31,568 nucleotides of DNA, taken from assembly GCA_903859225.1 (NCBI GenBank), contig CAIOLV010000001.1, positions 1-31,568 of the forward strand. The letters are read 5' to 3'. Positions 4,767 through 28,311 of this stretch are shown one piece after another. This stretch comes from an uncultured bacterium (GTDB lineage Bacteria; Bipolaricaulota; Bipolaricaulia; UBA7950; UBA9294). Within the stretch, counting starts at the first letter, position 1. The number at the start of each line of letters is the position of its first letter. Under the pieces are notes generated by a model. It was given only the letters and a program-made list of their open reading frames with translations. It was not told the origin of the DNA and searched no databases. The position numbers and the translations under genes were made by a program.

Positions 4767-4795
4767 TTGACAGCCCACGGGGCTCCTGCTAGAGT
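4767..4795 (+). promoter_or_regulatory. Sigma70-type promoter of the large operon
   Basis: TTGACA (4767-4772), 17-nt spacer, TAGAGT (4790-4795) preceded by extended -10 TG (4787-4788); lies in the 159-bp gap before lacI. Confidence 0.8.
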
Positions 4796-4809
4796 GGTGC
4801 ATCGATTTC

Positions 4810-4823
4810 GGAAAACGATTTCC
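4810..4823. promoter_or_regulatory. LacI-family operator
   Basis: GGAAAACGATTTCC: 12/14 palindrome with central CG and flanking AAA/TTT (PurR/RbsR/CcpA-like); just downstream of the predicted +1 and upstream of a LacI gene. Confidence 0.7.
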
Positions 4824-4851
4824 TTGGGGCGCGAGCATCCATGACAAGACC

Positions 4852-5850
4852 ATGAGAGCCACCATTCGGGAGGTTGCAGAGCGCGCGGGTGTCGCCCCCT
4901 GCACCGTTTCCCGAGTGCTCAACGGCCACGATGCGGAGCACATGCGTCCGGAGACGAAAGAGCGGGTTCTCGACTCCATCCGGGAACTTGACTACACGCC
5001 GGTCCGAGCGGCGCAGCGGCTTCGTCGCCAGCGAACTCACGCGCTGGGAATCCTCGTTCCTGACATCACCAACCTCTACTTCGCCCTGCTGACTCGCGGC
5101 GTCGAGTCTGTTGCGTTCGAGCGAGGCTTCACGAGCCTCATCTGTGACTCGAGCCACGACCCGCGACGTGAGGCTCGCTATCTCGAGATGCTTCTCGCCG
5201 AGGACGTCGAGGGCGTCCTCCTCGTTCCCACGGGGCGCGGCGACGCGAGTGCACTGAAGCGTCTGGTCGCGCGCGGAGTACGTGTCATGCTGATGGATCG
5301 GCGCATCGTCGGGTTCCCGGTCGTCGAGGCGGACAACCGCGGGGCGAGCCGGGCCCTTGGCGAGCACCTGCTTGGGCTGGGGTACGAACGCATGGTCTAC
5401 ATCAGCGGCCCGGCGGAGGTCAGCACCGCCGAGGATCGCCTGTGCGGATTCCGCGACGCCGTCCGCAGCGAAGGCGGCGACCTGGCGGACGTCCGGCGCG
5501 GCGCGTTCACGTTCGAGTCCGGATTCGATGCGGCGAGAGAGATTCTGCGACACGACAAGGCCGACGCTATCGTGGCGGCCAACGACCTCATGGCGTTTGG
5601 CGTCCTGCGTGCGGTGGAAGAGGAAGGCCTGTCGGTCCCCAGGGACATCGGGGTGGCGGGCTTCGATCATGTGCCGCACGTCCCGTATGCGACGTTCCTC
5701 CGGCCGGAACTGACCACCGTCGACGTTCCGGTGCACGAGATGGGCCGTCAGGCGGCGCGGCGCTTACTCGACGGGAAGGCGGACTCGCTGCAACTGGCAA
5801 CGACGCTCATTCCCGGGGGTACATGCATTGCGCGAAGGAGGGGCAAGTGA
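4852..5850 (+). CDS. LacI-family transcriptional regulator
   Basis: HTH TIREVAERAGVAPCTVSRVLN, hinge YTPVRAAQRL, sugar-binding domain with ANDLMAFG, VPRDIGVAGFD and PELTTV; 332 aa. Confidence 0.95.
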   Translation: MRATIREVAERAGVAPCTVSRVLNGHDAEHMRPETKERVLDSIRELDYTPVRAAQRLRRQRTHALGILVPDITNLYFALLTRGVESVAFERGFTSLICDSSHDPRREARYLEMLLAEDVEGVLLVPTGRGDASALKRLVARGVRVMLMDRRIVGFPVVEADNRGASRALGEHLLGLGYERMVYISGPAEVSTAEDRLCGFRDAVRSEGGDLADVRRGAFTFESGFDAAREILRHDKADAIVAANDLMAFGVLRAVEEEGLSVPRDIGVAGFDHVPHVPYATFLRPELTTVDVPVHEMGRQAARRLLDGKADSLQLATTLIPGGTCIARRRGK

Positions 5851-6593
5851 TCGGAAAGAGGACGCGGTTGGCGCGGTTGTTCCGCGCCGATGGGCGGGCC
5901 GTCGTGATTGCGCTCGATCACGGGCAGTTCAAGGGCTCCATGCCTGGGCTCGAGTCCGTGCCCGACATCGTGAAGCGCGTGGTCGACGGAGGGGCGGACG
6001 GAATCATCCTCAATGCGGGAGCGCTGGAAGGCTCTGTCTGCAACTACGCGGGACGCTGCTCGCTGATCGTTCGCGTCACGGGGGCGAGCACAGACGCCAA
6101 TCCCGGTTTCGACTATCACCGATCGATCCTGTCGGTCGAGCGGGCCGTCGCGCTGGGCGCGGACGCGGTCATCGCCATGGGCTTCCTCGGCAGCCCGAGC
6201 GAGGGGCCGTCGTTGGCCCTCCTGGCGGAGATTGCAGAGGACTGCCGGCGATGGGGAATGCCGCTGGTGGCCGAGATGCTGATCGCCGATCCGAAGAAGT
6301 TCAACGATGTCCCGTCGATCGCTCTGGGAGCCCGCGTGGCCTACGAGCTCGGCGCTGATGTCGTGAAAGCGTACGGCGCCGGCGAACCGTCGTTCGCCGA
6401 CATTCCGAAGAGCGGCCCGCTTCCCGTCCTCGTCGCGGGGGGCGCAAAGTCGGCGGACCCGGCGGAGATGGCGCGCCAAGCCGTCGAGTGCGGAGCGGCC
6501 GGCGTGGCATTCGGACGCACGGTGTTTGGGGCGGCGAACCCCACGGAGATCGTTCGCAGTCTCGTGAAGGCTGTGCATGGAAAGGGAGGCTAG
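5847..6593 (+). CDS. Class I aldolase (DhnA/LsrF/DeoC-LacD family)
   Basis: IALDHG, GADGII, Schiff-base Lys in GADVVKAY, VAGG, GVAFGR; GTGA overlap with the lacI stop; SD AAGGAGGGG; 248 aa. Confidence 0.88.
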   Translation: MIGKRTRLARLFRADGRAVVIALDHGQFKGSMPGLESVPDIVKRVVDGGADGIILNAGALEGSVCNYAGRCSLIVRVTGASTDANPGFDYHRSILSVERAVALGADAVIAMGFLGSPSEGPSLALLAEIAEDCRRWGMPLVAEMLIADPKKFNDVPSIALGARVAYELGADVVKAYGAGEPSFADIPKSGPLPVLVAGGAKSADPAEMARQAVECGAAGVAFGRTVFGAANPTEIVRSLVKAVHGKGG

Positions 6594-6594
6594 C

Positions 6595-8241
6595 ATGCGT
6601 CGCCTGGCTCGCCGGGCGGTTGTCGTCGCCCTCGTGATGGTCGGGGTCGGTGGGTCGGCTCTCTTCGCGGCCGGCGTTGGCGGCGTCGTGTTCCTCGACA
6701 AGAACCACAACGGCGCCCTCGACAGCGGGGAGACAGGCGTGTCGGGCGCTGTCGTGAGCGATGGGTTGAACGTAGTGCGCACGGACGATGCGGGTCGGTT
6801 CTCGCTTCCAGACAACAACGGAGCACGGTTCGTTTTCCTCTCCACTCCGAACGGGATGAAGCCCTCGGCCGGTTGGTACCGCGCCGTCGCGGAGGGCGGC
6901 TCGTACGTATTCCCGCTGGAAACGCGCGACGAATCCGGCCCGCTCGTCTTTGCGCAGCTCTCGGACATTCACTACGCCCCGGACCCAGAGGCATTCTCCC
7001 GCGCGTTCGCGGATCGCGAGATGGCGTTCTTGCCCAACGGGACTCTCGATGGGCTCGTCGCCGAGATCAACCCCCTCGCGCCCGACTTCGTGATCCTCAC
7101 GGGCGACATCATCGCCAATGCGAAGGGGCCGGAGCTCGACGAGGTCAAGTCGTGGTTCACGACGATGGATGATGGGTTCGTGTCGCGATTCACGGTGCCG
7201 GTCTACGAGGCGATGGGGAACCACGACGAGGTGCGGGATCCGGCCGTGGACAAGGCAGTGTACGAAGATCACTTCGGCCCGACCTACTACTCGTTCAACG
7301 TGAAGGGCACGCACTGCGTCGTCCTCGATCTCCACCAGCTTCAGGGGACGTCCCAGATCTACTCGCTCAGCGCGGCGGAGCTTGACTGGCTGCGCCGGGA
7401 CCTGGCCCTGGTCGGTGCGAATGCGCCGATTCTCGTCTTCTGTCACGAGCCGACGCCCGACTGGGCACAGACGCCGGAGAACGCCGCGTTGTGGGACCTT
7501 CTCGCCGGCTCGAACATCACGGCGCTCCTGAACGGCCACTGGCACACGAACTTCGTCCTGCGTGAGGAGCCGTTCTACGAGCTCACGTCGGGCGCGGTCT
7601 GCGGTTCGTGGTGGGAAGGACCGAACCCGGACGGCACGGGCTTCGGGTACCGCATCTACGAGATGTCGCGGGGCCGACTAGCAAGCACGTGGCGCACGGT
7701 GGGAGCGAATGTCGTCTCGTTCACGTCCCCGACCGCGGCGGCTCTCACGTGGACCGACCGCCTGGTCGCCAGCGTATGGGGCGAGGCGGCGTCAGCGGCC
7801 TACTGCTGGGACGGCGGCGCGAACGTGACGATCGATGTCGCGTCGAACGGTCTCTGGAGCACGGCGGCCGGCAATCTGAACGTGGCAACGCTCCCGTCGG
7901 GCTACCACACGCTCACCATCACGTTCTCGATGACGAGTGGGGGACCGATCGTGGGTCGGCAGGCGTTCTACGTCTTCGTGCCGGGGCTGTCCCTCAGCGA
8001 TTTCATCGATCACCCCGAGGTGTTCCAGGGGAAAATGGTCGGGACGACGGCGCTCGAGGTGCGTGCCGTGATGGGAGCCGACATCTCGGCGACCGACGGC
8101 ACGAAGACCATCATCGTGGCTAAGTTCCCACTCTCGGTGGCGAAGGGAGATCGCGTTTCGGTGGTCGGCATGTACCGGGCGACGAGCGCGGATCCGATCA
8201 AGGCCTTTGACCTGATCTTCAGCGTCAAGCTTGCGAAGTAG
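6595..8241 (+). CDS. Secreted calcineurin-like phosphoesterase with N-terminal SdrD/CnaB-like domain and C-terminal extension
   Basis: Signal peptide MRRLARRAVVVALVMVG; GVVFLDKNHNG..D.GE.GVSGAVVSDG; binuclear motifs SDIH, TGDII, GNHD, CHEP, GHWH; CGSWWEGPNPDGT; SD GGGAGG; 548 aa. Confidence 0.85.
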   Translation: MRRLARRAVVVALVMVGVGGSALFAAGVGGVVFLDKNHNGALDSGETGVSGAVVSDGLNVVRTDDAGRFSLPDNNGARFVFLSTPNGMKPSAGWYRAVAEGGSYVFPLETRDESGPLVFAQLSDIHYAPDPEAFSRAFADREMAFLPNGTLDGLVAEINPLAPDFVILTGDIIANAKGPELDEVKSWFTTMDDGFVSRFTVPVYEAMGNHDEVRDPAVDKAVYEDHFGPTYYSFNVKGTHCVVLDLHQLQGTSQIYSLSAAELDWLRRDLALVGANAPILVFCHEPTPDWAQTPENAALWDLLAGSNITALLNGHWHTNFVLREEPFYELTSGAVCGSWWEGPNPDGTGFGYRIYEMSRGRLASTWRTVGANVVSFTSPTAAALTWTDRLVASVWGEAASAAYCWDGGANVTIDVASNGLWSTAAGNLNVATLPSGYHTLTITFSMTSGGPIVGRQAFYVFVPGLSLSDFIDHPEVFQGKMVGTTALEVRAVMGADISATDGTKTIIVAKFPLSVAKGDRVSVVGMYRATSADPIKAFDLIFSVKLAK

Positions 8242-8264
8242 GTTGTGCGCAGGGAGGTAGTGCG

Positions 8265-9539
8265 ATGAGACGAGCAATGGGGATGCTGGGCATGGCGGCG
8301 CTGTTCGCGGCCACGGCCGCGGTGTGCGCCGGAGCGGTGACGCTGCAGTTCCTGACGCCGGCTTGGCAGGAAGACACGGTGACCGAGGTCGAGAACATCG
8401 TCGCGGAGTGGAATGCGGCGCGGCCGGATATCCAGGTGGAGATGGTCTCGGTGGCGTGGGAGAACATCAACGACTACCTCCTCACGAGCTTCCAGGCCGG
8501 ACAGGGACCGGATGTGATCCACCAGGACACGGTCATGTGTTACGAGTATGGTGTCCAGGGGTACGCGGAGCCGCTCAACCAGTATCTCGATGCCGCGACG
8601 CTGGCCGATACGCCCCAGGCGAGCTGGGACGGTGTCAGCGACGATCAGGGAAGCATCTACGGCGTCCCATTCCTGCAGGAAACGCTGGTCGTCTTCTACA
8701 ACAAGGCGATGTTCGCCACAGCGGGGATCACTCCGCCGGCCGACGGGATGGTCACGTGGGCCGAGCTGCGGGACTACGCGCTCCGACTGACAAAGACGGA
8801 TGCGAGCGGTCAGACGACGACGTGGGGGCTCCTGGCGCCTCTCGAACAGCGGCTTTGGTGGTGCCTTGTTGCGCAAAACGGCGGACAGGTCCTCGCGAAA
8901 CATGCCGACGGCACGTGGTACGTCGAGATCGACCAGGCGGCCCGGCAGGCGATCGAGTACTACACCAACCTGATTACGGTGGACCACGTCATGCCGCAGG
9001 ACGTCCTGAGCTATGACTTCACGAGCCTGCTCCAGGGCTTCAAGACGGGCAAGTACGCAATGTTTACTTTCGGATGCTGGGTCCGGAGCTGGATCAACAA
9101 CCTGACTCAGAACCAACTCGACTGGGGAATGCTCGAGGTCAAGGGTCCGGTGCGCAATGTCACGGAATCCGACCCGCAGGGCGTCTTCATCTACTCCGGC
9201 TCGGCTCACAAGGACGAGGCGGCGCAGTTCCTGCTCTACTTCACCAACACCGAGAACCAGGCGCGCATCGCGAAGGCCGACTGGCTCTTCCCCATTCGCC
9301 AGTCGGCGCTCGCACGCCCGGAGTTTCGGACAACACAGGAACAGTGGAATGTCCTCTATCAATGGCTTCCGTTCGCGGAGGATGTGAAGCCGAAGATGTT
9401 CGGCTTCTTCGGCTGGGAATGGCAGTCATTTATCCCGCAGATTGAGCAGGTCATCCTTGGATCGAAGACCCTGGATAAGGCGCTGCAGGCGGCGACGGAC
9501 GATGGGAACGAGTACCTTCGCCGCATGGGACTTCAATAG
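8265..9539 (+). CDS. ABC transporter substrate-binding protein (CUT1 sugar/nucleoside family)
   Basis: Signal peptide; GQGPDVI, IYGVPF, VFYNKAMF, TWAEL, FKTGKYAMF; SD GGAGGT; permeases nearby; 424 aa. Confidence 0.92.
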   Translation: MRRAMGMLGMAALFAATAAVCAGAVTLQFLTPAWQEDTVTEVENIVAEWNAARPDIQVEMVSVAWENINDYLLTSFQAGQGPDVIHQDTVMCYEYGVQGYAEPLNQYLDAATLADTPQASWDGVSDDQGSIYGVPFLQETLVVFYNKAMFATAGITPPADGMVTWAELRDYALRLTKTDASGQTTTWGLLAPLEQRLWWCLVAQNGGQVLAKHADGTWYVEIDQAARQAIEYYTNLITVDHVMPQDVLSYDFTSLLQGFKTGKYAMFTFGCWVRSWINNLTQNQLDWGMLEVKGPVRNVTESDPQGVFIYSGSAHKDEAAQFLLYFTNTENQARIAKADWLFPIRQSALARPEFRTTQEQWNVLYQWLPFAEDVKPKMFGFFGWEWQSFIPQIEQVILGSKTLDKALQAATDDGNEYLRRMGLQ

Positions 9540-9626
9540 GAGAGAGACGAAGGAGGTGGTTCGGCGCGCGCAGAGGTTGGCTGGAAGGGGATGTCTAGAA
9601 GGCTTTCGAGGGGGAAGGAGGACCAC

Positions 9627-10148
9627 GTGAAGCGAACGTTATGTCTCGGTGTGCTCTTGGCCGCACTTGTGGGCGCCACGGTGTGGGCCACCGGCACGGT
9701 GCCGACGGGGGATGTCGTCCTGACGATTTCGGGGCCAATGATTCTGATGAATAGGTGGGACGCGGCAGCTGGTGCTGGCGTGTGCGACTTCGACATGGAC
9801 ATGCTGAAGGCCGTGCCTGTCACAACCTACACGGTCACCGATCCGTGGCTGGGCGAGAAGACCTATACGGGAGTCCGTCTGTCCGATCTGCTCAAGTGGA
9901 TTGCCGTGGACCAGTACGCGGTGAAGGTCGTCATTGTCTGCTCGGACGCGGCGGAATTCGTTATCCAGATTAAGGATGCGGCACAGTACCCGATCATGAT
10001 CGCGTATGCATCCAACAGCAAGGTTATCAAGGCGGGCTCCGGCGGCCCACTGAAGGTCGTGTACCCGTACCAGATCGAGGGCGTCGAAGCTCTCTACGGC
10101 CCCGATAACTGGGCATGGTACGTGGTTGGGATTCGCGTGGAGTACTAG
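9627..10148 (+). CDS. Secreted sulfite-oxidase/molybdopterin-binding-fold protein (COG3915-like)
   Basis: Signal peptide MKRTLCLGVLLAALVGATVWA; VVLTISG, FDMDML, TDPW, YTGVRLSDLL, GPLKVVYP, WAWYVVGIRVE; SD AAGGAGG before GTG 9627; 173 aa. Confidence 0.7.
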   Translation: MKRTLCLGVLLAALVGATVWATGTVPTGDVVLTISGPMILMNRWDAAAGAGVCDFDMDMLKAVPVTTYTVTDPWLGEKTYTGVRLSDLLKWIAVDQYAVKVVIVCSDAAEFVIQIKDAAQYPIMIAYASNSKVIKAGSGGPLKVVYPYQIEGVEALYGPDNWAWYVVGIRVEY

Positions 10149-10167
10149 GCGCAAAGGGCCTTTGGCT

Positions 10168-10194
10168 GAGGGAGGGGGCAGCGCCCCCTCCCTC
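10168..10194 (+). other. Strong intergenic stem-loop (mRNA stabiliser or attenuator candidate)
   Basis: GAGGGAGGGGGC-AGC-GCCCCCTCCCTC: perfect 12-bp stem, 3-nt loop, no U-tract; preceded by CAAAGG-G-CCTTTG (10152-10164). Confidence 0.7.
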
Positions 10195-10248
10195 GCGAGA
10201 TCCACGCCATTGCCGGCGTGTCCGGCACGGAACACGGAGCGGGAACCT

Positions 10249-11292
10249 ATGCCGCGCAGCCAGAATGAGATGAAGATCGTCGAGCTTGTGGAGCTCGGAC
10301 GCGTGGAGACGCGGACGGCTCCGGTCCCGGTCCCGGGTCCGGGCGAGGCACGCCTGCGCGTGCGCGCCGTCGGACTCTGCGGCACGGATGTGAAGGCCTA
10401 CCGGCGCGGGCACCCCTATTTCAAGCCGCCGTGCGTGCTCGGCCACGAGGTCGTCGGAGCGATCGACGCCGTCGACGATGCGGTTCGAGGACTTGCAGTG
10501 GGCGAGCGCGTGGTCTGTGCGCCCTACGCGGAGTGCGGTGGGTGTCCGATCTGCCGCCGCGGCGTCGGCGAGCTGTGCGAGCACAAAGCATTCATTGCCG
10601 GCGCGCTGCAGGAGTACTTGATCCTCTCCGCCGACATCCTCGCCCGAGGCACGTTCCGCGTCGCGGGCGCGATGTCCGACGCCGTTGCGACCCTCGCTGA
10701 GCCACTGGCGTGCGCGATGAACGGCATCGAGCGGGCCGGCGTCCGGCGGGGCGACCGGGTTCTCGTTGTGGGTGGCGGTCCGATGGGCGCGCTGTTGGCC
10801 ATCGTCGCGCGGACGCTGTCTCCGCACGTCCTGGTGAGTGAAGTGAACCCGGCGCGCAGCGAGCATCTGCGGCGCCTCGGTCTCTCGGTCGTCAATCCCT
10901 CAGAAACGCCCCTCAGCGAAGCGCTGTCTCGGGCCTTCAGCGTGCCAGAAGCGGACCGGGTGTTGATCGCTGTCGGTGACCGCGGCGTGGCAGAGGATGC
11001 GATCGGGCTCACGGCAGCTGGAGGCACAGCGCTCCTCTTCGGCGGGTTGCCGAAAGGGGAGCGGTTGTCGCTCGACGCGTTTGCCATTCACTACCGTGAG
11101 GTGGGAGTCGTTGGGAGCTTTGGGTTCCAGGTTCGGCACTTCCGAAACGCCGTCGAGTGGATGGAGCAGCATCCCGGCGCGCTCGATGGAGTCGTCACGG
11201 CGTCGGTCCCCTTTGCCGAGGCCGCGCGGGCCTTTGTCGAGGCCGCACAACCTGATGGACTGAAGACGGTGATCCGGTTTGAAGAAGCCTAG
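10249..11292 (+). CDS. Zn-dependent medium-chain (polyol/sorbitol-type) dehydrogenase
   Basis: GLCGTD, GHE, structural Zn site CGGCPICRRGVGELC, EPLAC, GGGPMG; start at 10249 or 10270. Confidence 0.9.
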   Translation: MPRSQNEMKIVELVELGRVETRTAPVPVPGPGEARLRVRAVGLCGTDVKAYRRGHPYFKPPCVLGHEVVGAIDAVDDAVRGLAVGERVVCAPYAECGGCPICRRGVGELCEHKAFIAGALQEYLILSADILARGTFRVAGAMSDAVATLAEPLACAMNGIERAGVRRGDRVLVVGGGPMGALLAIVARTLSPHVLVSEVNPARSEHLRRLGLSVVNPSETPLSEALSRAFSVPEADRVLIAVGDRGVAEDAIGLTAAGGTALLFGGLPKGERLSLDAFAIHYREVGVVGSFGFQVRHFRNAVEWMEQHPGALDGVVTASVPFAEAARAFVEAAQPDGLKTVIRFEEA

Positions 11293-12169
11293 GCGGGAAC
11301 GCGCGGCGCGGTCGTACGTGGAGGAGAAGAGGGCCCTGCCGTTCGTGGCGCCCGCCCTCATCATCCTTTGCTTCGTGAGCCTATATCCTCTGGTTCAGGG
11401 GATCTCCCGCGTCCTGTACTCCTTCCGTGCGCTGACGGGGAAGAACGTCTACTCCGGGCTGCAGAACTTCGTCCTTCTCTTCCGCGATTCCGTCTTCGTT
11501 CACGCACTCCTGAACAGCCTCGTCTGGACCGTGACCAGTGTCGCGGCGATGTTCTTCGTGTCCTTTCTGCTGGCGACGATGCTCAACTCGCGGCATCTTC
11601 GCTTCCGTCGTGCGTTCCGGACCGTCACGCTCATTCCCTGGGCGCTGCCCGGCGTCGTCGTGTCGCTTATCTGGCGGTACATCTTCCTCTCCGGTGGGCC
11701 GCTCAACACCGCCCTTTCGGGACTTGGTGTGACCTACCCCCCGGCGTGGCTCATCGACCCGCACGTCGCCCTTTGGACGTGCATCGTCGCCAACATCTGG
11801 ATGGGAATTCCGTTCGTCACGATCATGATCCTCGCCGGGCTGCAGTCGCTCGAAGGAGACATTCTCGAGGCGGCGGCGATCGACGGCGCGAGCTACTTGC
11901 AGACGCAAGTGCGGATTGTTGTTCCGAGCATCAAGAAGGTCATTCTCATCATTCTCACGTTGGAGTCGATCTGGACCTTCAACTCGTTTGACATCGTCTT
12001 CGTCCTGACCAAAGGAGGACCGGCCAACGCGTCGATGACGCTCCCTCTCTACGCCTACACCTGGGCGTACGGCTCTCAGCAGGCCGGATACGGCGCGGCG
12101 ATCGGCATCATCATGCTGCTCATCTTGCTGAGCGTCGTCGTCCTCTACATTCGCGAGGTGCTGCAATGA
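11279..12169 (+). CDS. ABC permease (MalF/UgpA-like)
   Basis: Hydrophobic helices; EAA loop ILEAAAIDGAS; FDIVFVLTKGGP; start uncertain (TTG 11279 or GTG 11318). Confidence 0.9.
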   Translation: MKKPRRERAARSYVEEKRALPFVAPALIILCFVSLYPLVQGISRVLYSFRALTGKNVYSGLQNFVLLFRDSVFVHALLNSLVWTVTSVAAMFFVSFLLATMLNSRHLRFRRAFRTVTLIPWALPGVVVSLIWRYIFLSGGPLNTALSGLGVTYPPAWLIDPHVALWTCIVANIWMGIPFVTIMILAGLQSLEGDILEAAAIDGASYLQTQVRIVVPSIKKVILIILTLESIWTFNSFDIVFVLTKGGPANASMTLPLYAYTWAYGSQQAGYGAAIGIIMLLILLSVVVLYIREVLQ

Positions 12170-14938: not shown

Positions 14939-14952
14939 GGGCGGGAGGCTCG

Positions 14953-19725: not shown

Positions 19726-21052
19726 GCGGATCGTGCTCGGGGCAGCGGTTCTCGCGGGCGCGGACGCGTCCCTGCGACTGGATTGCGGCGTGCTGATCGA
19801 AGGCGCGCGGATCGTCGCCGTGGGCCCGAACGCCCAGTTGACCGCTCACGCGGGCGATGCCGAGATCCTCGACGCGCGCGACCTCATTCTCTGCCCCGGA
19901 TGGGTGAACGCCCATCATCACGCTTACGGCCTTCTCGCCCACGGAATCCCGATCGCGGGCGACGCGCCTCGCGGGTTCGACCGCTTCCTTTCCGACCTCT
20001 GGTGGCCGCGCGTCGAGGATCGGCTTGACGGGAGCATGATCGAGGCGGCGATGGCGGTCTCGTGCGCCGACATGATTCGCTCGGGGTTCACGGCGTTTTG
20101 TGACGTCCTGGAGGCGCCGCTGGCCGGGACGGGCGTTCTCGACCTCGAAGCGCGCGCCGTCGAACGCGCCGGGTTGCGGGCCGCCCTCTGCCTTGAGGCA
20201 TCGGAGCGACATGGCGCCGAAGTTGGCCGGCAGGCGCTGTGGGAGAACGAGCGGTTCGCCCGGGAGCGTGGGCGCGACGGACTCGTTCGCGGGATGCAGT
20301 GCCTTCACACGAGCTTCACCTGCTCGGAGGGGTTTGTGCGCGCGGCGAAGGAGAGCGCGGCCCGCGCCGGCTGCGATCTGCATCTTCACCTCTCGGAAAG
20401 CGCCTACGAGCCAAAGGAGTGCCTGCGGCGTCACGGCGTGCGCCCGGTTCACTGGTACGACCAACTGGGGTTCTGGGACGAGACGGTGCTGGCTTCGCAG
20501 GTCGTGGCGGTGACCGACGACGAGATCGCGCGGCTCGCCGAGCGTCGCGTCCGCATCGCCCACATGCCGCTCTCGAACTGCGAAGTAGGAGGAGGCATCG
20601 CGCCCATCCCGCAGATGATCGAGCGCGGCCTCGAACCAGGACTCGGAACCGACGGGTACATCAACGATCCGTTCGAAGTGATGCGCGGCGCGTTCCTCCT
20701 CCACAAAGGGGCGGCGCGAGATGCGTCGGTGATGCCGGCGCGGACGGTGCTGGGCATGGCGACGGCGTGGGGCGCCCGGGCGATCGGGTTTCCCGAGGCG
20801 GGAGCCCTCGCGCCGGGGCACCCGGCCGACCTCATCGGAATCGACGACGCTCCGGGCACGCCGCTCACAGCAGACAACGTCGCGGACCAGCTCGTTCTCT
20901 TCCGCGGGCGCGGCGACGTCAAGCTGACGATCGTGGCCGGTCGAGTGCTCTTCCGTAACGGAGTGGTCGAGACGATGGACGAAGGAGCCGTCCGAGCGGC
21001 CGCGCGCCTCGAAGTGGCGCGACTCTGGGCGGGAAGGGGGCGCGGTGGTTGA
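19718..21052 (+). CDS. Amidohydrolase (SsnA / guanine-, MTA- or pterin-deaminase-like)
   Basis: PGWVNAHHH, HLHLSE, GLGTDG, G.L.PG.PADL; 444 aa. Confidence 0.88.
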   Translation: MDRRIVLGAAVLAGADASLRLDCGVLIEGARIVAVGPNAQLTAHAGDAEILDARDLILCPGWVNAHHHAYGLLAHGIPIAGDAPRGFDRFLSDLWWPRVEDRLDGSMIEAAMAVSCADMIRSGFTAFCDVLEAPLAGTGVLDLEARAVERAGLRAALCLEASERHGAEVGRQALWENERFARERGRDGLVRGMQCLHTSFTCSEGFVRAAKESAARAGCDLHLHLSESAYEPKECLRRHGVRPVHWYDQLGFWDETVLASQVVAVTDDEIARLAERRVRIAHMPLSNCEVGGGIAPIPQMIERGLEPGLGTDGYINDPFEVMRGAFLLHKGAARDASVMPARTVLGMATAWGARAIGFPEAGALAPGHPADLIGIDDAPGTPLTADNVADQLVLFRGRGDVKLTIVAGRVLFRNGVVETMDEGAVRAAARLEVARLWAGRGRGG

Positions 21053-22100
21053 TCTGCGAGTCGACCTTGCCGGCCTCACGCTCGTGAATCCGCTTGTGCT
21101 GGCGTCGGGCCCTCTGTCGTGGAACGGTGACGCGATCGTCCGCGCGCACTGCGCCGGAGCGGCGGCGATCGTGACGAAAACGATCCGCCGCGCTGCGGCG
21201 CGTTCGCCGCGGCCGCACATCGCCGCAACTCCTCACGGGGTTCTGAACACGGAGCGTTGGTCGGACCTCGAAGCGAGGCAGTGGATCGACCACGAGATCC
21301 CGCGAGCGAAGGACGGGGGCGCAACGGTGATCGCGAGCCTGGGACTCGCCGTGGACGACGTCGTGGCGCTGGCCGAAGAACTCGAGCGGGCAGGAGCCGA
21401 TGCCCTCGAGGTCGTGTCGTACGACGAGGCCGTCCTCCCGAGCATGGTGAGCGCAGCGGTCGAGCGAGTGCGGATCCCCGTGCTTGCGAAGCTTGGCGTC
21501 AACGGGTGCGATCTCGCAGGCACCGCGCGACGGTGCGCCGAATCCGGCGCGAGCGGCATCACGGCGATCGACTCCGTCGGCCCGACGTTGCGCGTCGACC
21601 TCGCGCGTCGCCGCCCCGTTCTCGGAGCAGATTCCGCATGGTGGTCCGGTCCGGCGATCCTGCCGATCGCGCTGCACGCCGTGCACGTCCTCCGCGGCGC
21701 CGTCGCCGTGCCCATCGTGGGGACGGGGGGCGTGGCGGATGCAGACGCGGCGATCGAGATGCTGTTCGCCGGGGCCAGCGCCGTCGGGCTGTGCAGCGCT
21801 CCTCTCGTTGAGGGCCTCGGCGTCTTTTCGCGGATGCGCGAGCGGATGGCACAGCGTTTGGACGAGCTCGGCATCGCGTCCGCCCATGATGCGATCGGCG
21901 CGATGGAACGAGAGACTGCCGCGGGGTTCGCAATGGCGTTGGACGATGCGGCGTGCACGCACTGTGGCGCCTGCGTTCGGGTCTGTCCATACGCTGCGCG
22001 GCGAGGTCCTGGCGTCGTCGAAGCCGCGTGCCGCGGCTGCGGGTTGTGCGTCTCCATCTGCCCGGCAGGCGCGCTGGCGTGGGAAAGGGGTGAACGATGA
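21045..22100 (+). CDS. Dihydroorotate/dihydropyrimidine dehydrogenase (PreA)-like FMN barrel with C-terminal 2x[4Fe-4S]
   Basis: NPLVLASGP, VTKT, SGPAILP, IVGTGGV, AGASAVG; CTHCGACVRVCP and CRGCGLCVSICP; 351 aa. Confidence 0.85.
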   Translation: MVDLRVDLAGLTLVNPLVLASGPLSWNGDAIVRAHCAGAAAIVTKTIRRAAARSPRPHIAATPHGVLNTERWSDLEARQWIDHEIPRAKDGGATVIASLGLAVDDVVALAEELERAGADALEVVSYDEAVLPSMVSAAVERVRIPVLAKLGVNGCDLAGTARRCAESGASGITAIDSVGPTLRVDLARRRPVLGADSAWWSGPAILPIALHAVHVLRGAVAVPIVGTGGVADADAAIEMLFAGASAVGLCSAPLVEGLGVFSRMRERMAQRLDELGIASAHDAIGAMERETAAGFAMALDDAACTHCGACVRVCPYAARRGPGVVEAACRGCGLCVSICPAGALAWERGER

Positions 22101-23425
22101 TCCTTGTGCGGGGAGCCTCGTACGTCGTGCGCGATGCCGATCGCGTCGAGCGGGATGTGGACGTTCTCATCGACGGAGATCGCATAGTCAAGGTGGGCCA
22201 CGTCGACATCCGCCGCCTCGCGCCGGACACGGAGATCCTCGAAGGCCGCGGCCGCGCGCTGGTACCGGGGTTCGTCAATGCGCATACCCACCTGTATCAG
22301 TCCATGCTCAAGGGGCGGCGCGACGATCTCTCGCTCGTCGACTGGTGCGAGCAGGTCACGTTCCCGTTCGTTCGCCGTGTGCTCGACGATGCGTGGCACC
22401 ATGGGCGCGTCGAGGTCGGACGCCTTTGGTCGTCCCTAGCGGCCATCGAGATGATCCGCAGCGGGATCACGACGTTCGTCGACATGGACATGGACCTCGA
22501 CGGCGTGATCTCGGCGTGGGTCGAGATCGGCATCCGCGGTGTCGCGGCGATGGAACTCGTCGATCGTTGGGTGCCGCAGGACCTGATGCTGTCGCTCGAG
22601 AGGACCAAGGACGACGCACGGCGTCTGATCGAGACGTGGCACCGGGTTCCGAGAGAGAGCCCGCTCGTGACCGTGTTCCTCGGCCCGTCGGCGCCGTTCA
22701 CGTCGAGCGACGACCTCTTGCGGTTCATCCGTGACGAGGCCGATGCGCACGATCTCGGGATCCAGACGCACGTGTCGGAGACGGCGTGGGAGGTCGACGA
22801 GTCGGTGCGGCGGACCGGCAAGACGCCGCTCGCTTACCTCGAGTCGATCGGCTTCCTCACGAGTCCGATCACGGCCGCGCACTGCGTCCACCTGACCGAG
22901 GGTGAGATCGAGCTTGCGGCGCGGCGCGACGTCGCCGTGATCTACAACCCGAAGAGCAACATGAAGCTTGGGAGCGGCATCGCGCCGATCGTCGCCCTGC
23001 AACGAGCCGGAGCGACGATCGCGCTCGGCACGGACGGCGCGGCGTCGAACGACCTCCTCGACCCGTTCGAGGAAATGCGCGCTGCGGTGCTCTTGCAGAA
23101 GGTGGCGGCGGGCGATCCGACGGCGCTTGGGGCGCGGGACGCCTTCCGCTTCGCCACCGAAGGCGGGGCGCGCGCGTGCCGGATCGACGCAGGCACGATC
23201 GATGAGGGGCGGCTCGCCGACCTTGTCCTCATCGACCTCGGCGAAGCACACCTCTTCCGCCTGACGGACGAGATCGTGCCGGCGCTCGTGTACTGCGCGC
23301 GGGCGGACGACGTCGAATCCGTCGTCGTCAACGGGCGGCTGGTGATGAAGGAGAGACGGATGTTGACGGTGGACGAGCGGGCTGTGTTGGCCGAAGCGAA
23401 GAGAGTGGGTGAACGATATGCGTGA
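22097..23425 (+). CDS. Amidohydrolase (MtaD/TrzA-type nucleoside or base deaminase)
   Basis: PGFVNAHTH, PSAPFT, HVSET, AHCVH, NPKSNMKLGSG, LGTDGAASND, G..ADL; ATGA overlap; 442 aa. Confidence 0.9.
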   Translation: MILVRGASYVVRDADRVERDVDVLIDGDRIVKVGHVDIRRLAPDTEILEGRGRALVPGFVNAHTHLYQSMLKGRRDDLSLVDWCEQVTFPFVRRVLDDAWHHGRVEVGRLWSSLAAIEMIRSGITTFVDMDMDLDGVISAWVEIGIRGVAAMELVDRWVPQDLMLSLERTKDDARRLIETWHRVPRESPLVTVFLGPSAPFTSSDDLLRFIRDEADAHDLGIQTHVSETAWEVDESVRRTGKTPLAYLESIGFLTSPITAAHCVHLTEGEIELAARRDVAVIYNPKSNMKLGSGIAPIVALQRAGATIALGTDGAASNDLLDPFEEMRAAVLLQKVAAGDPTALGARDAFRFATEGGARACRIDAGTIDEGRLADLVLIDLGEAHLFRLTDEIVPALVYCARADDVESVVVNGRLVMKERRMLTVDERAVLAEAKRVGERYA

Positions 23426-24827
23426 AGACCTGACCGGGGCGATGGCGCGGATCGTCGGAGAGGCGAACGTCTCCGACCGGCTCGTCGATCGGATCTGCTA
23501 CTCGCGGGACTGCGGGCCGGACCCGGCGGGCATTCCCGCCGTCGTGGCGCGACCGTCGACGACCGAGGAAGTGGCCGCCGTGCTCCGCTGGGCGGACGAG
23601 CACCGCCACGCGCTGTACACGCGCGGCCGGGCCACGACGTTTCTCGGCAGCGGTGTGAAGGAAGGCGTGATCTTGCTCGATACGACGCGGATGAATCGGA
23701 TCGAGCGGATCGATACGGCGGCCGGCTATGTCGACGTCCAGGCGGGTGCCATCTGGCATGGGATCGACGCCGACCTTCGTCGTGTCGGGTGGGAACTCGG
23801 CGTTCCCGGAGGCGGCGGGCTGTTCTCGTGCACCATCGGCGGCACGGTAGCCGTGAACGCGATCCCGCACGGCGCGACCGAGTACGGGATGACGGGCGAC
23901 CATGTCCTCGCGCTGGAGGTCGTCCTCGCGAACGGCACCGTCATTCGCACGGGTTCCTGGGCCAATCCTGCGTCGGAGCCGATTGAGCGCAACGCCAACG
24001 GCCCTGACTTCGCCGGCCTCTTCATCGGCTCGTACGGGATCCTCGGCGTGATCACGCGGGTCGTCTACCGGATTCGCCGCGCGCCCGAGTCCGAACTCTT
24101 CCGGTTCTACGCGTTTGACGACTACCGCGACCTCGTGGCCGCGGCGGGCGGGATCCAGGGACGCGGCGCGGCGACGTTCCTCGTCGGTCTGTTCGGCGGG
24201 CCGAAGCCCGCGGGAGAAGAGGGAGATGCATTCTTTCACGTGATCGTTCGCGATCGCTCCGCGGTGGCTGAGGGTCGCATGCATGAAGCGGAGGCGATCG
24301 CCGAGTCCCACGGCGGACGTCCGCGTCCGGCCGAAGGGACGCGCCACTACTGGCAGGAGCACATGTACTCGTGGCTCCGTAATACGGGACCGAGCGCGTA
24401 CTACAGCGATCGACCGTTCTTCTGCCCCGAGGTAGCGGGGTTCGTCTCGACGCCCGGACTGGCGGACGCCGTCGCCCTCTTCCGGACGATGAGAGCCGAG
24501 CGAGAGGCCGAGTTCGAGCAATACGGGATCCGCGTCAAGGGAGTTGACGCCTACTTCGCGCGCAACGGCGCGTACCTGTGGATCGACACGCTCTACGACG
24601 AGCGGCGATAGGACGCCTGGGAGTACGGAATGCGGCTGCGGGGCGAGATCGCGGAACGGATGTTCACGGAAGGCAGGATGAGCCCCGGAGGTCTCGGCGC
24701 CGGGATCTCTCCGCACATCATGCCGAAGCTCGGAACGGCCTACGACCTACTGCGCTCGACGAAGCGCATGCTCGATCCGAACGGAATTCTGAATCCCGGA
24801 CTGCTGGTCGAGGAGGGTGCGCAATGA
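23418..24827 (+). pseudogene. GlcD-like FAD-binding oxidoreductase interrupted by one in-frame TAG (24609-24611)
   Basis: YSRD, AVVARP.T.EEV, CTIGGTVAVNA, LEVVLANG, LFIGSYGILGVIT; after the TAG the same frame continues 71 codons to the family C-terminus KRMLDPNGILNPG and an ATGA overlap with the next gene. Confidence 0.7.
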
Positions 24828-25963
24828 AGCTCGCCGAGTACAAGAACCAGATCTACAGCTGTCTCCGCTGCGGCTTCTGCTTCGACCATGAGGTCGGGAG
24901 CCAGGCGAAGATCTGCCCGTCGCACGTGACGTACGGGATGGAATCCTTCGGGGCACGCGGCAAGCTCGCCATCGCGCGGGCGCTGGTCGATGAGGCGATC
25001 GAGTACGACAGCGACGTTGCACAGCGCGTCTACGCTTGCACCGAGTGTGGCGCCTGCGAAGAGCAGTGCTTCAAGTACCTCGACCTCCTCGGCATCTACC
25101 GTGCGATGAAGGGCGAACTCGCCGAGCGAGACCTCGTGCCGACGGCGCTTGCTGACGTCGCGCGCGCCGCAGAGCGGGAGGGAAACCCCTACGGCCAGGC
25201 GGCGGGGAAGCGCCTCGACTGGGCGCCGGGAAGGGAACGTGTGGGCAAGAAGGCGGAGACCGTCTTCTTCGCCGGATGCACACCGTCCTACCTGCGACGC
25301 GGGATCGCCCGCGGCGCGTACCAGCTCCTCGAGGCGGGCGACGTCGACTTCGGCCTGCTCGCAGAGGAAGTCTGCTGTGGGCATCCGTCCTACGTTGCCG
25401 GGGACCTCGCCGGCGCACGCGCCGCCGTGGCGAGGAATGTGGAAGCGATCGAGCGGTCGGGTGCGACGCGCGTTGTCTTCGCCTGCCCGGGATGCCTCGC
25501 GACCTTCCGCGACGAAGCGCCGGAACTCCTCGGCCGGCCGCTTCCGTTCGAGGCTGTGCACGTGACGGAACTGCTCACCGAGCGGCTGGCTGCGGGATGG
25601 CGCTTGCGCAAGCAATCGCGGGTGGTGACGTACCACGACCCGTGCAACCTCGGGCGAGGCCTCGGGATCTACGACGCCCCGCGGCGTGTCATCGACGCGG
25701 TCCCCGGCGTGCGGCGAACGGAGATGCGCCGGACGATGGCGAGGTCGTTCTGCTGCGGCAACGGGGGATTCGTCCGCTTCGGCTACGAGCCCATGGCGAT
25801 CGAGAACGAAGCGACGCGGCTCGAGGAGGCTGTGGCAACGGGGGCCGACCTCCTCTTGTCGGCCTGTCCGGCGTGCCAGATCGCGTTCCTCGACGCGAAG
25901 AGGCGCGCGAAGGCGGCGATTGAGGTCCTCGACATCGTGGAGTGGCTGGCGACGGCACTGTAG
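24824..25963 (+). CDS. GlcF/HdrD-like Fe-S oxidoreductase (2x[4Fe-4S] plus CCG domains)
   Basis: CLRCGFC..CP, CTECGACEEQC, EVCCG, YHDPCNLGR, FCCG, SACPAC; 379 aa. Confidence 0.9.
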   Translation: MKLAEYKNQIYSCLRCGFCFDHEVGSQAKICPSHVTYGMESFGARGKLAIARALVDEAIEYDSDVAQRVYACTECGACEEQCFKYLDLLGIYRAMKGELAERDLVPTALADVARAAEREGNPYGQAAGKRLDWAPGRERVGKKAETVFFAGCTPSYLRRGIARGAYQLLEAGDVDFGLLAEEVCCGHPSYVAGDLAGARAAVARNVEAIERSGATRVVFACPGCLATFRDEAPELLGRPLPFEAVHVTELLTERLAAGWRLRKQSRVVTYHDPCNLGRGLGIYDAPRRVIDAVPGVRRTEMRRTMARSFCCGNGGFVRFGYEPMAIENEATRLEEAVATGADLLLSACPACQIAFLDAKRRAKAAIEVLDIVEWLATAL

Positions 25964-25975
25964 GACGGAGGCGAG

Positions 25976-27328
25976 ATGGCGACGAGCGAAGCATGGGCCG
26001 CGGAGCTTGCGGCACGGTGGCGGGTCGAGACGGCGTCGGGTGTGATCGTCTATCCCACGTCGGCGGCCGTCGGGGCGATGGAAAACCTCGGCGTCGACAT
26101 GAGGGAGGCCGCGCCCCTGCTTCGTGACGCCGAGGACGCCTTCGCCCGGCGTGACTGGAGCCGCCTCGCGACGGCGCTCGCTCGTGTGAACGGCGTCATT
26201 GCCGCTCGATTGCCGTCCGTGCGGGAGGGCGAGCCGGAGACGTGGGACGAGTACCGCGCGACCGTGCCGGGCGGGGCGCCGGGGCGGGCGCGCTCCGGCG
26301 TGTCGAGCGGAGCGTCGACGGCGGCGCGTTCGGGCATGCCCGTCGACTACGATGATCGCGTGCGCGGAGCCTGGATCGGCAAGTGCATTGGTACTGCGCT
26401 CGGCGATCCGGTCGAGGGCTGGACGAGGGAACGGATCGCCGCCGAGCACGCGCCGATCTCCGGCTACCTCGTGCCGCCGAAGGTCGAGAACGACGACACG
26501 GCGTACCCCATCCTCGTGTTGCACGCGCTGGACGAGCACGGCACAGGGTTCACGAGCGCCGACCTCGCTCTCGAGTGGGTCGCTCATCTTCCGCTCGCGT
26601 TCACCGCGGAGTGGTCGGCGATCGAGAACGTGAAGGCCGGCGTCCTGCCGCCGGACAGCCGATGGGTAAGGAACCCTTGCGGCGCATGGGTCGGCGGGCA
26701 GATGCGAACTGAGATCCATGGGCTGCTCGCGCCGCTCGATCCCGAGCGCGCCGCGGAGTGGGCCTTCCGCGACGCGGTCATCTCGCACTACCGCGAAGGC
26801 ATGGACGGTGCCATCTTCACCGCCGCCGTCACGAGCCTCGCGTTCTCCGGGGAACCGACGGAGACTCTCATCCGCGCGGCCCTTCGCTACGTCCGTCCTG
26901 GAGGCGCGTTCGCGGCAACCGTCGAGCGGACGCTCGACGCCTGCAAACGCCACGGAGACTGGCGTCGGGTCCTGGACGAACTGCGCCCCGATCTCGATCG
27001 CTTCCATTGGATCCACACGCTGCCGAACATCGCCTGTGCCGTAACGGGGCTTGTTCTCGGAGAGCGGGACTTCGAGCGCTCGATCCTGACGACGCTGCAA
27101 TGTGGGTACGACACCGACTGCTCGGCCGGGCAGACGGCGGCGCTGCTTGGTTGCCTGCTCGGTGCGCGCGGGATTCCCGACAAGTGGAGTCGTCCGATTG
27201 GTCAACGACTCACATCGTACGTCGTAGGTTTCGAGGAGATCGAGTTCGAGAAGCTCATCGCGTGGACGACGGGGTGGGGATCGATTCTGGCAGGAGAGCG
27301 CAGTTCGTGGAAGGGGGACGTCGCATGA
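25976..27328 (+). CDS. ADP-ribosylglycohydrolase family protein
   Basis: RVRGAWIGKCIGTALGDPVEG, NDDT, FTAE, GQMR, DA.ISH, HTLPN, GYDTDC..Q.A...G; ~120-aa N-terminal extension; SD GGAGG; 450 aa. Confidence 0.85.
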   Translation: MATSEAWAAELAARWRVETASGVIVYPTSAAVGAMENLGVDMREAAPLLRDAEDAFARRDWSRLATALARVNGVIAARLPSVREGEPETWDEYRATVPGGAPGRARSGVSSGASTAARSGMPVDYDDRVRGAWIGKCIGTALGDPVEGWTRERIAAEHAPISGYLVPPKVENDDTAYPILVLHALDEHGTGFTSADLALEWVAHLPLAFTAEWSAIENVKAGVLPPDSRWVRNPCGAWVGGQMRTEIHGLLAPLDPERAAEWAFRDAVISHYREGMDGAIFTAAVTSLAFSGEPTETLIRAALRYVRPGGAFAATVERTLDACKRHGDWRRVLDELRPDLDRFHWIHTLPNIACAVTGLVLGERDFERSILTTLQCGYDTDCSAGQTAALLGCLLGARGIPDKWSRPIGQRLTSYVVGFEEIEFEKLIAWTTGWGSILAGERSSWKGDVA

Positions 27329-28311
27329 TTGTCGTGCTCGGGAGCGCCAACATGGATGTCGTCACCGAGGTCGCGCGGATGCCGCGCCCGGGCGAGACCG
27401 TTCCCGGGAAGGCGCTGCGCTACTACCCCGGCGGCAAAGGAGCGAACCAGGCGGTCGCTGCCGCGCGCCTCGGCGGCCCAGTCTCGTTCTGCGGAGAGGT
27501 CGGTCGAGACGCGTTTGGCGAGCGACTCCTCGACGCGATGCGAGCCGACGGCGTCGACGTGAGTGGGGTCGAGATCGCAGCGGACGCGGCGACCGGCACG
27601 GCGTCGATCTGGGTCGAAGACGGCGGCGAGAACGCGATTGCGTGCGTTCCCGGCGCGAACGGCGCCGTCGATCGAGCGTACGTAGACCGCATCCTCGCGC
27701 GCATCGCCGCGGCGGACGTGCTTCTCTTGCAGCTCGAGATCCCGCTCGACACGGTGGCGTACCTCTTGAGGCGGCTGCCCGGTGGGCGGCCGCTCGTGAT
27801 CCTGGATCCCGCGCCGGCGCGCGAGTTGTCGGGCCTTCCGCTTGACCGCATCGACGTGCTGACGCCGAACGAGACGGAACTCCGAGCGATCACGGGGATT
27901 GCGGATCCGGCGCTCGCCGCGCGCAGCCTTCTCGAACGCGGGGTCCGCGCCGTCGTGTGCAAGGCGGGCGAACGCGGCGCGATCTGGTTCGGCGTCTCGG
28001 CAACGCGCGTGCCGGCATTCCGAGTCCGCGTCGTCGACACGACGGCGGCCGGCGATGCGTTCAACGGGGCGCTGGCCGTCGCGCTGACGGATCGTCCACT
28101 CCACGATGCGGTTCGTTTTGCCAACGCGGCAGGCGCTCTGGCCACGACGAAACGCGGTGCGCAGCCTTCGCTGCCGCGTCGTGCCGAGGTCGAGGAACTG
28201 CTCGCTGCGTCTGTCGCTGCTCAGGGGACGGCGGAGCTCGCGACGAAGCGGCCCCAGCCTGGGCCGGTGGGAAACTCCCCGTCCGCGAAGACACAACGCC
28301 CGCGGACGTAG
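27325..28311 (+). CDS. rbsK: Ribokinase (PfkB family)
   Basis: GSANMD, PGGKGANQAVAAARLG, PNETE, DTTAAGDAFNG, GAQPSLP; ATGA overlap; ~30-aa C-terminal tail overlaps the convergent gene. Confidence 0.9.
   Translation: MIVVLGSANMDVVTEVARMPRPGETVPGKALRYYPGGKGANQAVAAARLGGPVSFCGEVGRDAFGERLLDAMRADGVDVSGVEIAADAATGTASIWVEDGGENAIACVPGANGAVDRAYVDRILARIAAADVLLLQLEIPLDTVAYLLRRLPGGRPLVILDPAPARELSGLPLDRIDVLTPNETELRAITGIADPALAARSLLERGVRAVVCKAGERGAIWFGVSATRVPAFRVRVVDTTAAGDAFNGALAVALTDRPLHDAVRFANAAGALATTKRGAQPSLPRRAEVEELLAASVAAQGTAELATKRPQPGPVGNSPSAKTQRPRT

Follow-up and report, generated by a model that had tools for sequence, protein, structure and literature searches.

The 31,568-nt stretch of DNA analyzed here (the window) is the entire contig CAIOLV010000001.1 of one metagenome-assembled genome (MAG; 1.07 Mb, 68% complete) from uncultured, anaerobic bacteria of the phylum Bipolaricaulota. 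With a G+C content of ~68%, it carries a predicted 20-gene operon for which a catabolic role, the breakdown of a ribose-bearing N-heterocycle, is well supported. The best reading of the substrate would be a pteridine coenzyme or riboside bearing a ribose-ribitol-phosphodiester tail, a proposal in which we place slightly less than even confidence, and it is possible, if doubtful, that the substrate is specifically of the methanopterin class, archaeal methanopterin being the leading candidate. Each reaction, and the substrate itself, we infer from what the genomes hold: gene content, its conservation and modularity, the promoter and operator, homology to the pterin-binding protein PruR, and the missing synthesis of tetrahydromethanopterin (H4MPT) and methanofuran.

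GC3 frame analysis, together with Pfam and NCBIfam searches, resolves exactly 20 genes on the + strand between 4852 and 28311. Taking the likely starts, start and stop codons overlap by 4-22 bp at 14 of the 19 junctions, the remaining gaps being 1-100 nt. A single σ70-like site (TTGACA-17-TAGAGT, 4767-4795) is found within 4500-24000, and the putative operator palindrome, which has a central CG and lies 15 nt past the -10 hexamer, occurs as a single full copy across the window, where 0.12 would be expected by chance. An earlier sequence-only reading of this DNA had proposed 20 co-oriented, mostly overlapping genes behind one promoter and one operator; this architecture is borne out, and its family calls were all reproduced by the Pfam and NCBIfam searches. 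Judged by these sequence features, the 20 genes behind one promoter-like site and operator are a real, if predicted, operon. Its elements are as follows, together with a convergent 21st gene and with module letters (A to C) that refer to the comparisons described further below.

4767-4795, + strand: promoter-like site, TTGACA-17 nt-TAGAGT with a TG extension; hexamers and spacing conserved.
4800-4823, + strand: predicted LacI-type operator, the imperfect palindrome GGAAAACGATTTCC (4810-4823) with a half-site-like repeat before it; conserved.
4852-5850, + strand: LacI-family repressor (Pfam LacI PF00356 plus Peripla_BP_1/3, PF00532/PF13377), RbsR/CytR/PurR-like and under every equivalog cut-off.
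5847-6593, + strand: class I aldolase of the DhnA/ADH-synthase type, module A (PF01791; NF005556 205 vs. a cut-off of 241).
6595-8241, + strand: exported metallophosphoesterase of phosphodiesterase type, module A (MetallophosN and Metallophos; signal peptide).
8265-9539, + strand: CUT1 solute-binding protein, module A (SBP_bac_1; signal peptide; sugar-binding PDB relatives).
9627-10148, + strand: secreted protein assigned to the PruR family by fold and profile, sulfite oxidase (SUOX) fold without the Mo-ligating Cys, module A (signal peptide).
10249-11292, + strand: Zn-dependent polyol/sugar dehydrogenase, module A (ADH_N, Glu_dehyd_C, ADH_zinc_N; YdjJ/Tdh/IolM-like, below cut-offs).
11279-12169 and 12166-12993, + strand: two CUT1 ABC permeases (BPD_transp_1 twice; MalF/MalG- and UgpA/E-like).
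12990-14045, + strand: kinase of the DAGK_cat/NAD-kinase fold from an uncharacterized family, module A (domain search).
14024-14938, + strand: divergent Ftr homologue with the formyltransferase fold (FTR and FTR_C, both above the Pfam cut-off).
14953-15966, + strand: Mch homologue, a cyclohydrolase (PF02289, E 8e-49).
15953-17815 and 17812-19725, + strand: two tandem tungsten-type AOR paralogues, module C (AFOR_N and AFOR_C).
19718-21052, + strand: SsnA/TRZ-ATZ-like amidohydrolase AmhA, module C (domain search).
21045-22100, + strand: PreA/class-1 DHOD-like flavoprotein with C-terminal 2x[4Fe-4S], module C (domain search).
22097-23425, + strand: cog0402 deaminase-type amidohydrolase AmhB, module B (domain search).
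23418-24827, + strand: FAD_binding_4 (VAO/GlcD-superfamily) flavoprotein, module B (domain search).
24824-25963, + strand: GlcF/LdhH/TfrB-like Fe-S protein with CCG domains, module B (domain search).
25976-27328, + strand: ribosyl hydrolase of the ADP-ribosylglycohydrolase (ARH) fold with an N-terminal extension of ~125 aa, module A (PF03747).
27325-28311, + strand: ribokinase, module A (TIGR02152 309.6 vs. a cut-off of 299.65).
28221-29600 (start uncertain, 29561-29600), - strand: convergent dihydropyrimidinase/hydantoinase-type amidohydrolase AmhC, module C (TIGR02033 389.4, just under 393.25).

The regulatory reading gains comparative support from other genomes. Upstream of the LacI gene in seven orthologous loci, the promoter hexamers and their spacing are kept, and the putative operator is kept in seven of the eight loci (the window and the seven others), being degenerate in L032 and a perfect palindrome in G139. 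The 23-nt operator region, AACGATTTCGGAAAACGATTTCC, is near-identical although LacI identity between loci is only 52-84%, and the intergenic DNA around the conserved promoter and operator is unalignable between loci. Ahead of modules B and C inside the operon, there is no second promoter or operator. A weak operator-like match with two mismatches also lies on the - strand at 9953-9966, within the PruR-like gene, and is probably due to chance. An Rfam search of the window returned no known RNA or riboswitch, its lone match being a chance miRNA (E 0.55). No ABC ATPase (ABC_tran) is encoded between 4852 and 28311, a shared MsiK-type ATPase elsewhere not having been searched for.

Had these genes never been found together elsewhere, the proposal would have been refuted (a chance mosaic); instead, many genomes carry them together and in the same order. 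Within one phylum, the Bipolaricaulota, at least 10 genomes from several genera have the cluster with its gene order kept; most of the genomes are MAGs, and kin among them are not independent. The ~80 relatives of the Ftr homologue at ≥47% identity lie on contigs with identical gene order. A spread over many phyla was rejected as unsafe: some of the MAGs are labeled Atribacteria or Thermotogota, and at least one (with a Thermotogae label) falls in the window's family. When all proteins of the window are mapped by tblastn onto stretches from ten same-phylum genomes, the complete array is seen in G116-G119, which belong to the same genus as the window, and also in G164. The two AORs travel jointly as part of a block, AOR1-AOR2-AmhA-DHOD-like, that is missing from G130, G139 and L002/L003 and lies 3' of the ribokinase in G161/L120 and L004. 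AmhC, on the opposite strand, belongs to the conserved neighborhood as a 21st gene, adjoining the cluster in G116, G117, G164, G161, G042 and L002. The G042 genome, which is 93% complete and from a different family, has all of the genes except Ftr and Mch. We considered a clean swap of Ftr-Mch for AmhC in G042 and rejected it as over-interpretation, as AmhC travels with module C.

Three modules are distinguished in this way. Module A, which would harvest the sugar parts of an imported conjugate, comprises the phosphodiesterase, the secreted binding proteins, the ABC importer, ARH, ribokinase, Zn-dehydrogenase, kinase and aldolase; module B, AmhB and the FAD/Fe-S pair, usually with Ftr-Mch; and module C, the two AORs, AmhA, the PreA-like reductase and AmhC. 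In the Bipolaricaulota, modules B and C interrupt module A, separating its kinase from its ARH. Searching outwards from the small secreted protein locates module A in other lineages, as two shorter clusters. One cluster (L134/L135) has an aldolase, Metallophos, the small protein, Zn-ADH, a solute-binding protein, two permeases, PfkB, a SorC-type regulator, a DAGK-like kinase, ARH and an MFS protein, with no ring-processing enzyme in the cluster. Another, in a Firmicute MAG (L132), has an energy-coupling factor (ECF) importer with a RibU-type S component, PfkB, ARH, aldolase, Zn-ADH, an FGGY kinase and MFS, as well as a PruR-like small protein and an NPP-type phosphodiesterase. Since the same functions thus recur with non-orthologous replacements (ECF/MFS for ABC, FGGY for the DAGK-like kinase and NPP for Metallophos), module A would be a functional unit, and organisms that have module A alone presumably export the aglycone via their MFS protein. 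The earlier expectation of a self-contained pathway accordingly survives as the catabolism of a ribose-bearing N-heterocycle and fails as an indivisible unit, module A being found alone and Ftr-Mch and the AORs being optional. In some genomes, a second binding protein and two permeases lie 5' of the phosphoesterase (L002-L004, with a PruR-like gene, and L029 of G164), a duplicated importer set that suggests two imported products.

The evidence favors a coenzyme over a nucleoside, and the small secreted protein of module A bears on this. PruR itself is known as a small secreted protein of the SUOX fold with a Trp, in a Pro-Trp motif, in place of the Mo-ligating Cys, and its pocket holds the pterin ring between Tyr104 and Trp160, bonded to Asn102 (PMC11194511). 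The AlphaFold2 model of the window's protein (pLDDT 82) finds its best Foldseek matches in the PruR structures 7KOU, 7KOS and 7RKB (E 1e-10, TM 0.84), the last of these solved with neopterin, with sulfite oxidases behind at E 1e-6; the family profile matches PDB PruR over its full length at E 3.8e-20. Across 13 orthologues there is no conserved Cys, and D72-P73-W74, D107, G139-G140-P141, W162 and W164 are invariant. When set against the PruR pocket, the Pro-Trp motif and the stacking Trp (W164) are kept, with Asn102 replaced by the invariant D107 and Tyr104 by a variable residue. As judged by profile and predicted structure, then, this is a PruR-family member with an altered pocket. Like the PruR of Agrobacterium tumefaciens and other Proteobacteria, it is small, secreted and a truncated protein of the SUOX fold only, with the Pro-Trp and the stacking Trp (PMC11194511). 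The proteobacterial PruR, on the other hand, acts in signaling with a DcpA-type c-di-GMP enzyme, whereas the protein described here is accompanied in every case by an ABC binding protein or other transporter, never by a DcpA-type partner, and its setting is a catabolic operon. Within the phylum, the PruR-like gene is single-copy and present in 25 of 184 genomes, the Ftr clade in 24 of the 184, and both in 20. A more distant PruR-like gene (34%) lies directly 5' of a GAF histidine kinase and a response regulator at another locus, L133, a context that is by analogy closer to the signaling role of the proteobacterial PruR.

Ftr and Mch are encoded by adjacent genes and are full-length homologues, of the same fold, of enzymes of solved structure. 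The Ftr homologues form a monophyletic clade (100/100), separated by ~2 substitutions per site from every canonical sequence in the sample, which was drawn via an N-terminal motif. The NCBIfam equivalog scores for Ftr fall far below cut-off (166 vs. 297 and 155 vs. 293). Its catalytic Glu (E248) is invariant, and 43 of the 95 positions conserved in canonical Ftr hold a different residue, in most cases one that is itself conserved. Mch also scores far below its cut-off (TIGR03120, 144 vs. 229) and keeps R194/E197 and 30 of the 32 canonical conserved positions, defined as those at least 80% conserved in 91 canonical-length relatives; the Mch superfamily as a whole comprises 358 clusters at 50% identity. 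The sequence-only reading had reported non-canonical active sites in several enzymes, which fits the remodeled Ftr and does not extend to Mch or to the amber codon discussed below.

In the five cluster-bearing genomes that are at least 90% complete, none encodes β-RFAP synthase, MfnB or Mtd; each has one Mch, within the cluster, and all have formate-tetrahydrofolate ligase. The hosts make neither H4MPT nor methanofuran. Because β-RFAP synthase, MfnB and Mtd are missing from them, Ftr-Mch does not serve an endogenous H4MPT pathway. The Ftr-Mch pairs of methanogens, Archaeoglobus and methylotrophs (1FTR/2FHJ and 1QLM/4GVQ; FhcD, 6S6Y) share the fold, the catalytic residues and the adjacency of the genes; they differ from the pair in the window in that the latter scores below cut-off, has a remodeled Ftr, belongs to a host without H4MPT or methanofuran synthesis, and lies in a catabolic context. 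On the simplest reading, Mch would still act on a methenyl-pterin-like head group, the second substrate of Ftr would have changed, and the pterin would come from outside the cell. A genome note records Ftr/Mch homologues in Acetomicrobium. Divergent Ftr/Mch relatives elsewhere neighbor a cog0402 amidohydrolase, to which L119 adds ARH, PfkB and a phosphoesterase. Divergent Mch paralogues also lie beside Bmp-type ABC importers in L118, L121 and L122, with two Mch per locus in L118 and L121, where they are beside cog0402 hydrolases and DAO-type flavoproteins as well; these three loci look like a related but distinct heterocycle pathway. At another locus, L123, Mch adjoins a sarcosine-oxidase-like set, without a Bmp importer.

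Among the remaining enzymes, the phosphoesterase (which, like the solute-binding and PruR-like proteins, has a signal peptide) finds its nearest solved relatives in the Rv0805/Icc cyclic-nucleotide phosphodiesterases. The ARH protein has only distant relatives in the PDB, and its metal ligands E147, D173-D174-T175, D379 and D381 are invariant in 10 orthologues; the ribokinase exceeds the TIGR02152 equivalog cut-off. The nearest structures to AmhB are the MTA/SAH deaminase 4f0r and an 8-oxoguanine deaminase, and the cog0402 group to which it belongs includes pterin deaminase, too. What had been called a GlcD/GlcF pair does consist of FAD_binding_4 and CCG Fe-S proteins. The likeness of the first to GlcD and other hydroxy-acid dehydrogenases is, however, confined to the FAD_binding_4 domain, and the Fe-S subunit has more in common with TfrB and LdhH. 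Nor is this a glycolate oxidase GlcDEF, there being no match to the FAD-oxidase C-terminal domain and no GlcE in the locus. At 24609-24611 the GlcD-like gene shows an in-frame TAG, an artefact of assembly or of a rare variant that the population does not share: contigs of four public runs from three studies have A at 24609, giving AAG or AAA (Lys), and the nearest relative has AAG. Recoding at this amber codon was rejected, as homologues hold E, S, P, A, K, D or N there. Because the public runs all read A at 24609, the GlcD-like gene (23418-24827) is intact.

If these assignments are put in order, the exported phosphodiesterase would split a phosphodiester outside the cell, and the secreted PruR-type and CUT1 binding proteins would capture the product for import by the ABC transporter. 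The ARH-fold hydrolase would then free ribose, for phosphorylation by ribokinase, while the Zn-dehydrogenase, kinase and class I aldolase could convert the polyol chain to a triose phosphate and an aldehyde. Modules B and C would break down the remaining nitrogen heterocycle, the aglycone, with Mch and the remodeled Ftr stripping pterin-bound one-carbon (C1) units. Since the host cannot make methanofuran, the formyl acceptor would have to be another compound.

A substrate for such a sequence should combine a phosphodiester with a ribofuranosyl group and another polyol or sugar; its amino-substituted heteroaromatic ring should suit the pterin-binding fold, and in most hosts it should also bear a C1-amidine or formyl group. 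In methanopterin, a 2-aminopterin is joined via an aminophenyl group to 1-deoxyribitol, which in turn bears an α-ribofuranosyl-5-phosphate esterified to hydroxyglutarate; much of the intracellular pool carries methenyl, formyl or methyl groups. It is, to our knowledge, the only natural compound that fits all five features, FAD fitting four of them, and each of its parts has a plausible enzyme in the operon. The organism's habitat, freshwater sediment and wetland metagenomes, is a setting where archaeal cofactors are available. That Bipolaricaulota of methanogenic sediments catabolize archaeal methanopterin-class cofactors, by means of a PruR-type receptor and a phosphodiesterase outside the cell, ARH cleavage of the α-ribofuranosyl-ribitol bond, a laterally acquired Mch and a re-targeted Ftr, is a tentative proposal that we think may well prove wrong.

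Several observations weigh against this assignment. In the PruR-like protein, Tyr104 is not conserved and Asn102 is Asp, which leaves room for a ligand other than a simple pterin. G042 does without Ftr-Mch, AmhB is closest to deaminases of adenosine analogues and 8-oxoguanine, and distant relatives of Mch adjoin ABC transporters of the Bmp type, which is a nucleoside type. The GlcD-like protein matches hydroxy-acid dehydrogenases in its FAD domain only. The RibU-type ECF component in the module A of the Firmicute MAG hints at flavins, and methanopterin is a minor share of biomass.

Some of these same points would be expected if the operon degraded a purine or modified nucleoside without xanthine dehydrogenase, with dephosphorylation outside the cell, import, deamination by AmhB and removal of ribose by ARH and ribokinase; the Mch-like protein would open a ring amidine, the Ftr-like protein would remove the formyl group, and module C would reduce and hydrolyze the remainder. 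The nearest relatives of AmhB (deaminases of MTA/SAH, 5'-deoxyadenosine and 8-oxoguanine) are what such a pathway calls for, as are the Bmp (PF02608) nucleoside-type ABC systems and cog0402 hydrolases that adjoin distant Mch-like genes, and module C parallels the SsnA/HyuA/PreT-like set of the enterobacterial anaerobic urate clusters. Yet this scheme leaves unexplained the polyol dehydrogenase, the second kinase and the aldolase, which are invariant even in minimal clusters, and also the PruR-type protein; CUT1 importers are unusual for nucleosides, and Mch retains the residues of the H4MPT enzyme. We therefore regard it as unlikely. A flavin cofactor (FAD or FMN, possibly F420) is a somewhat poorer prospect again. 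Here, a pyrophosphatase or phosphodiesterase would split FAD, with the adenosine half passing to the deaminase, ARH and ribokinase, while the ribityl chain of the other half would be oxidized, phosphorylated and then split by the aldolase; the PruR-like protein would bind the isoalloxazine, which is a benzo-pteridine. The Firmicute module A, with its RibU-type ECF S component and NPP-type pyrophosphatase, and the two importers in several genomes are consistent with this scheme; a ribokinase is found in the aerobic riboflavin catabolic cluster of Microbacterium, and flavins are present in all biomass. It gives no role to Ftr-Mch, however, and requires that the single importer of the window and its genus handle two products, F420 has neither ribose nor an amino group, and the PruR family has been shown to bind pterins, not flavins (PMC11194511).

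The two other alternatives concern parts of the operon. Module A might degrade a ribosyl-ribitol-phosphate polymer of the teichoic-acid or capsule type, with no heterocycle involved and with modules B and C as unrelated neighbors on the same strand. Module A is indeed found alone elsewhere, and its phosphodiesterase, ribofuranosidase, ribokinase and polyol dehydrogenase are what such a polymer would presumably need. Modules B and C nevertheless lie inside module A, joined by overlapping start and stop codons with no promoter or operator of their own, and keep this arrangement across genera, and the PruR-type protein is invariant in module A, all of which makes the polymer improbable. Finally, Ftr and Mch are otherwise known only from H4MPT-dependent C1 pathways, and keep their catalytic residues, as they would if they served such a pathway of the host. 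Endogenous H4MPT metabolism was rejected on the missing biosynthesis genes: with β-RFAP synthase, MfnB and Mtd lacking from the five nearly complete genomes, their sole Mch inside the cluster and formate-tetrahydrofolate ligase present in all five, we give it next to no credence. The sequence-only reading had left the choice between a nucleoside-like and a coenzyme-like substrate open; with a PruR-type, putatively pterin-binding protein in the operon, the evidence favors a coenzyme, the nucleoside becoming the less favored of the two.

A match to a published pathway would likewise have refuted the proposal; our literature search, which covered this gene combination, methanopterin and pterin-riboside catabolism, and Ftr/Mch in these phyla, brought up no description of the gene set or of any such catabolic route. 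Among the closest known systems are E. coli yegTUV, which itself has no assigned function, and the ribose utilization clusters of Bacteroides, which likewise combine ARH, PfkB and an importer with a sugar-type repressor for scavenging ribose from conjugates (bioRxiv 10.1101/574913; PMC10819704) and which, unlike the window, are without genes for the phosphodiesterase, PruR-like protein, polyol dehydrogenase, aldolase, Ftr-Mch, AOR and ring hydrolases. With module C, the enterobacterial and clostridial anaerobic urate clusters (ssnA, hyuA, ygfK, xdhD, ygeW-Y) and PreAT/dihydropyrimidinase share an SsnA-like enzyme, a hydantoinase-type enzyme, a PreA-like enzyme and a pterin-metal enzyme; in the window all scores, those of the SsnA-like and HyuA-like proteins included, are under equivalog cut-offs. 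The Se/Mo xanthine dehydrogenase, YgeW/X/Y, carbamoyltransferase, diaminopropionate lyase and carbamate kinase of these systems have no counterpart in the window, where the metal enzymes are instead of the AOR family. The riboflavin cluster of Microbacterium maritypicum is a further instance of cofactor catabolism, with a ribokinase and recovery of the sugar part of a pteridine-type cofactor; it differs in being aerobic and monooxygenase-based, and is not known to include ARH, Ftr, Mch or AOR.

The operon is flanked on its 5' side by genes for the POR gamma subunit, an ADP-forming acyl-CoA synthetase, an aminotransferase and a Metallophos_2 protein, and on its 3' side by the convergent hydantoinase-type amidohydrolase, a PKD protein and a third AOR. 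A genome of the same genus, G114 (L001), has identical flanks (POR, acyl-CoA synthetase, aminotransferase, Metallophos_2, PKD protein and AOR; their counterparts in the window are at 1-4692 and 29900-31567), with only a divergent Ftr (49%) and a PfkB between them; the operon site looks like a hot spot of gain or loss. The third AOR-family gene (31181-31567, - strand) lies outside the operon and is cut off by the contig end. The open reading frame of the PKD protein (29299-31152, + strand) overlaps, in antisense, that of the amidohydrolase (28221-29891, - strand) in the same codon phase; as the L001 homologue has 452 aa, the true start of the PKD protein is probably near 29900.

Even without the exact substrate, the module map, with A as a stand-alone unit and B and C optional, defines a concrete and cheap set of proteins for expression and ligand screens. 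Should the proposed pathway be correct, it would provide a role for the widespread and unexplained pairing of ARH, PfkB and transporter genes, and would extend the recently described PruR pterin-binding family from signaling to nutrient capture. It would likewise give a first function to the distinct Ftr clade, and would be the first role of Ftr and Mch outside C1 pathways; the catabolism of an archaeal C1 coenzyme would also be without precedent. The bacterial recycling of archaeal or other pteridine cofactors would then be an unrecognized link in anoxic carbon and nitrogen cycling.

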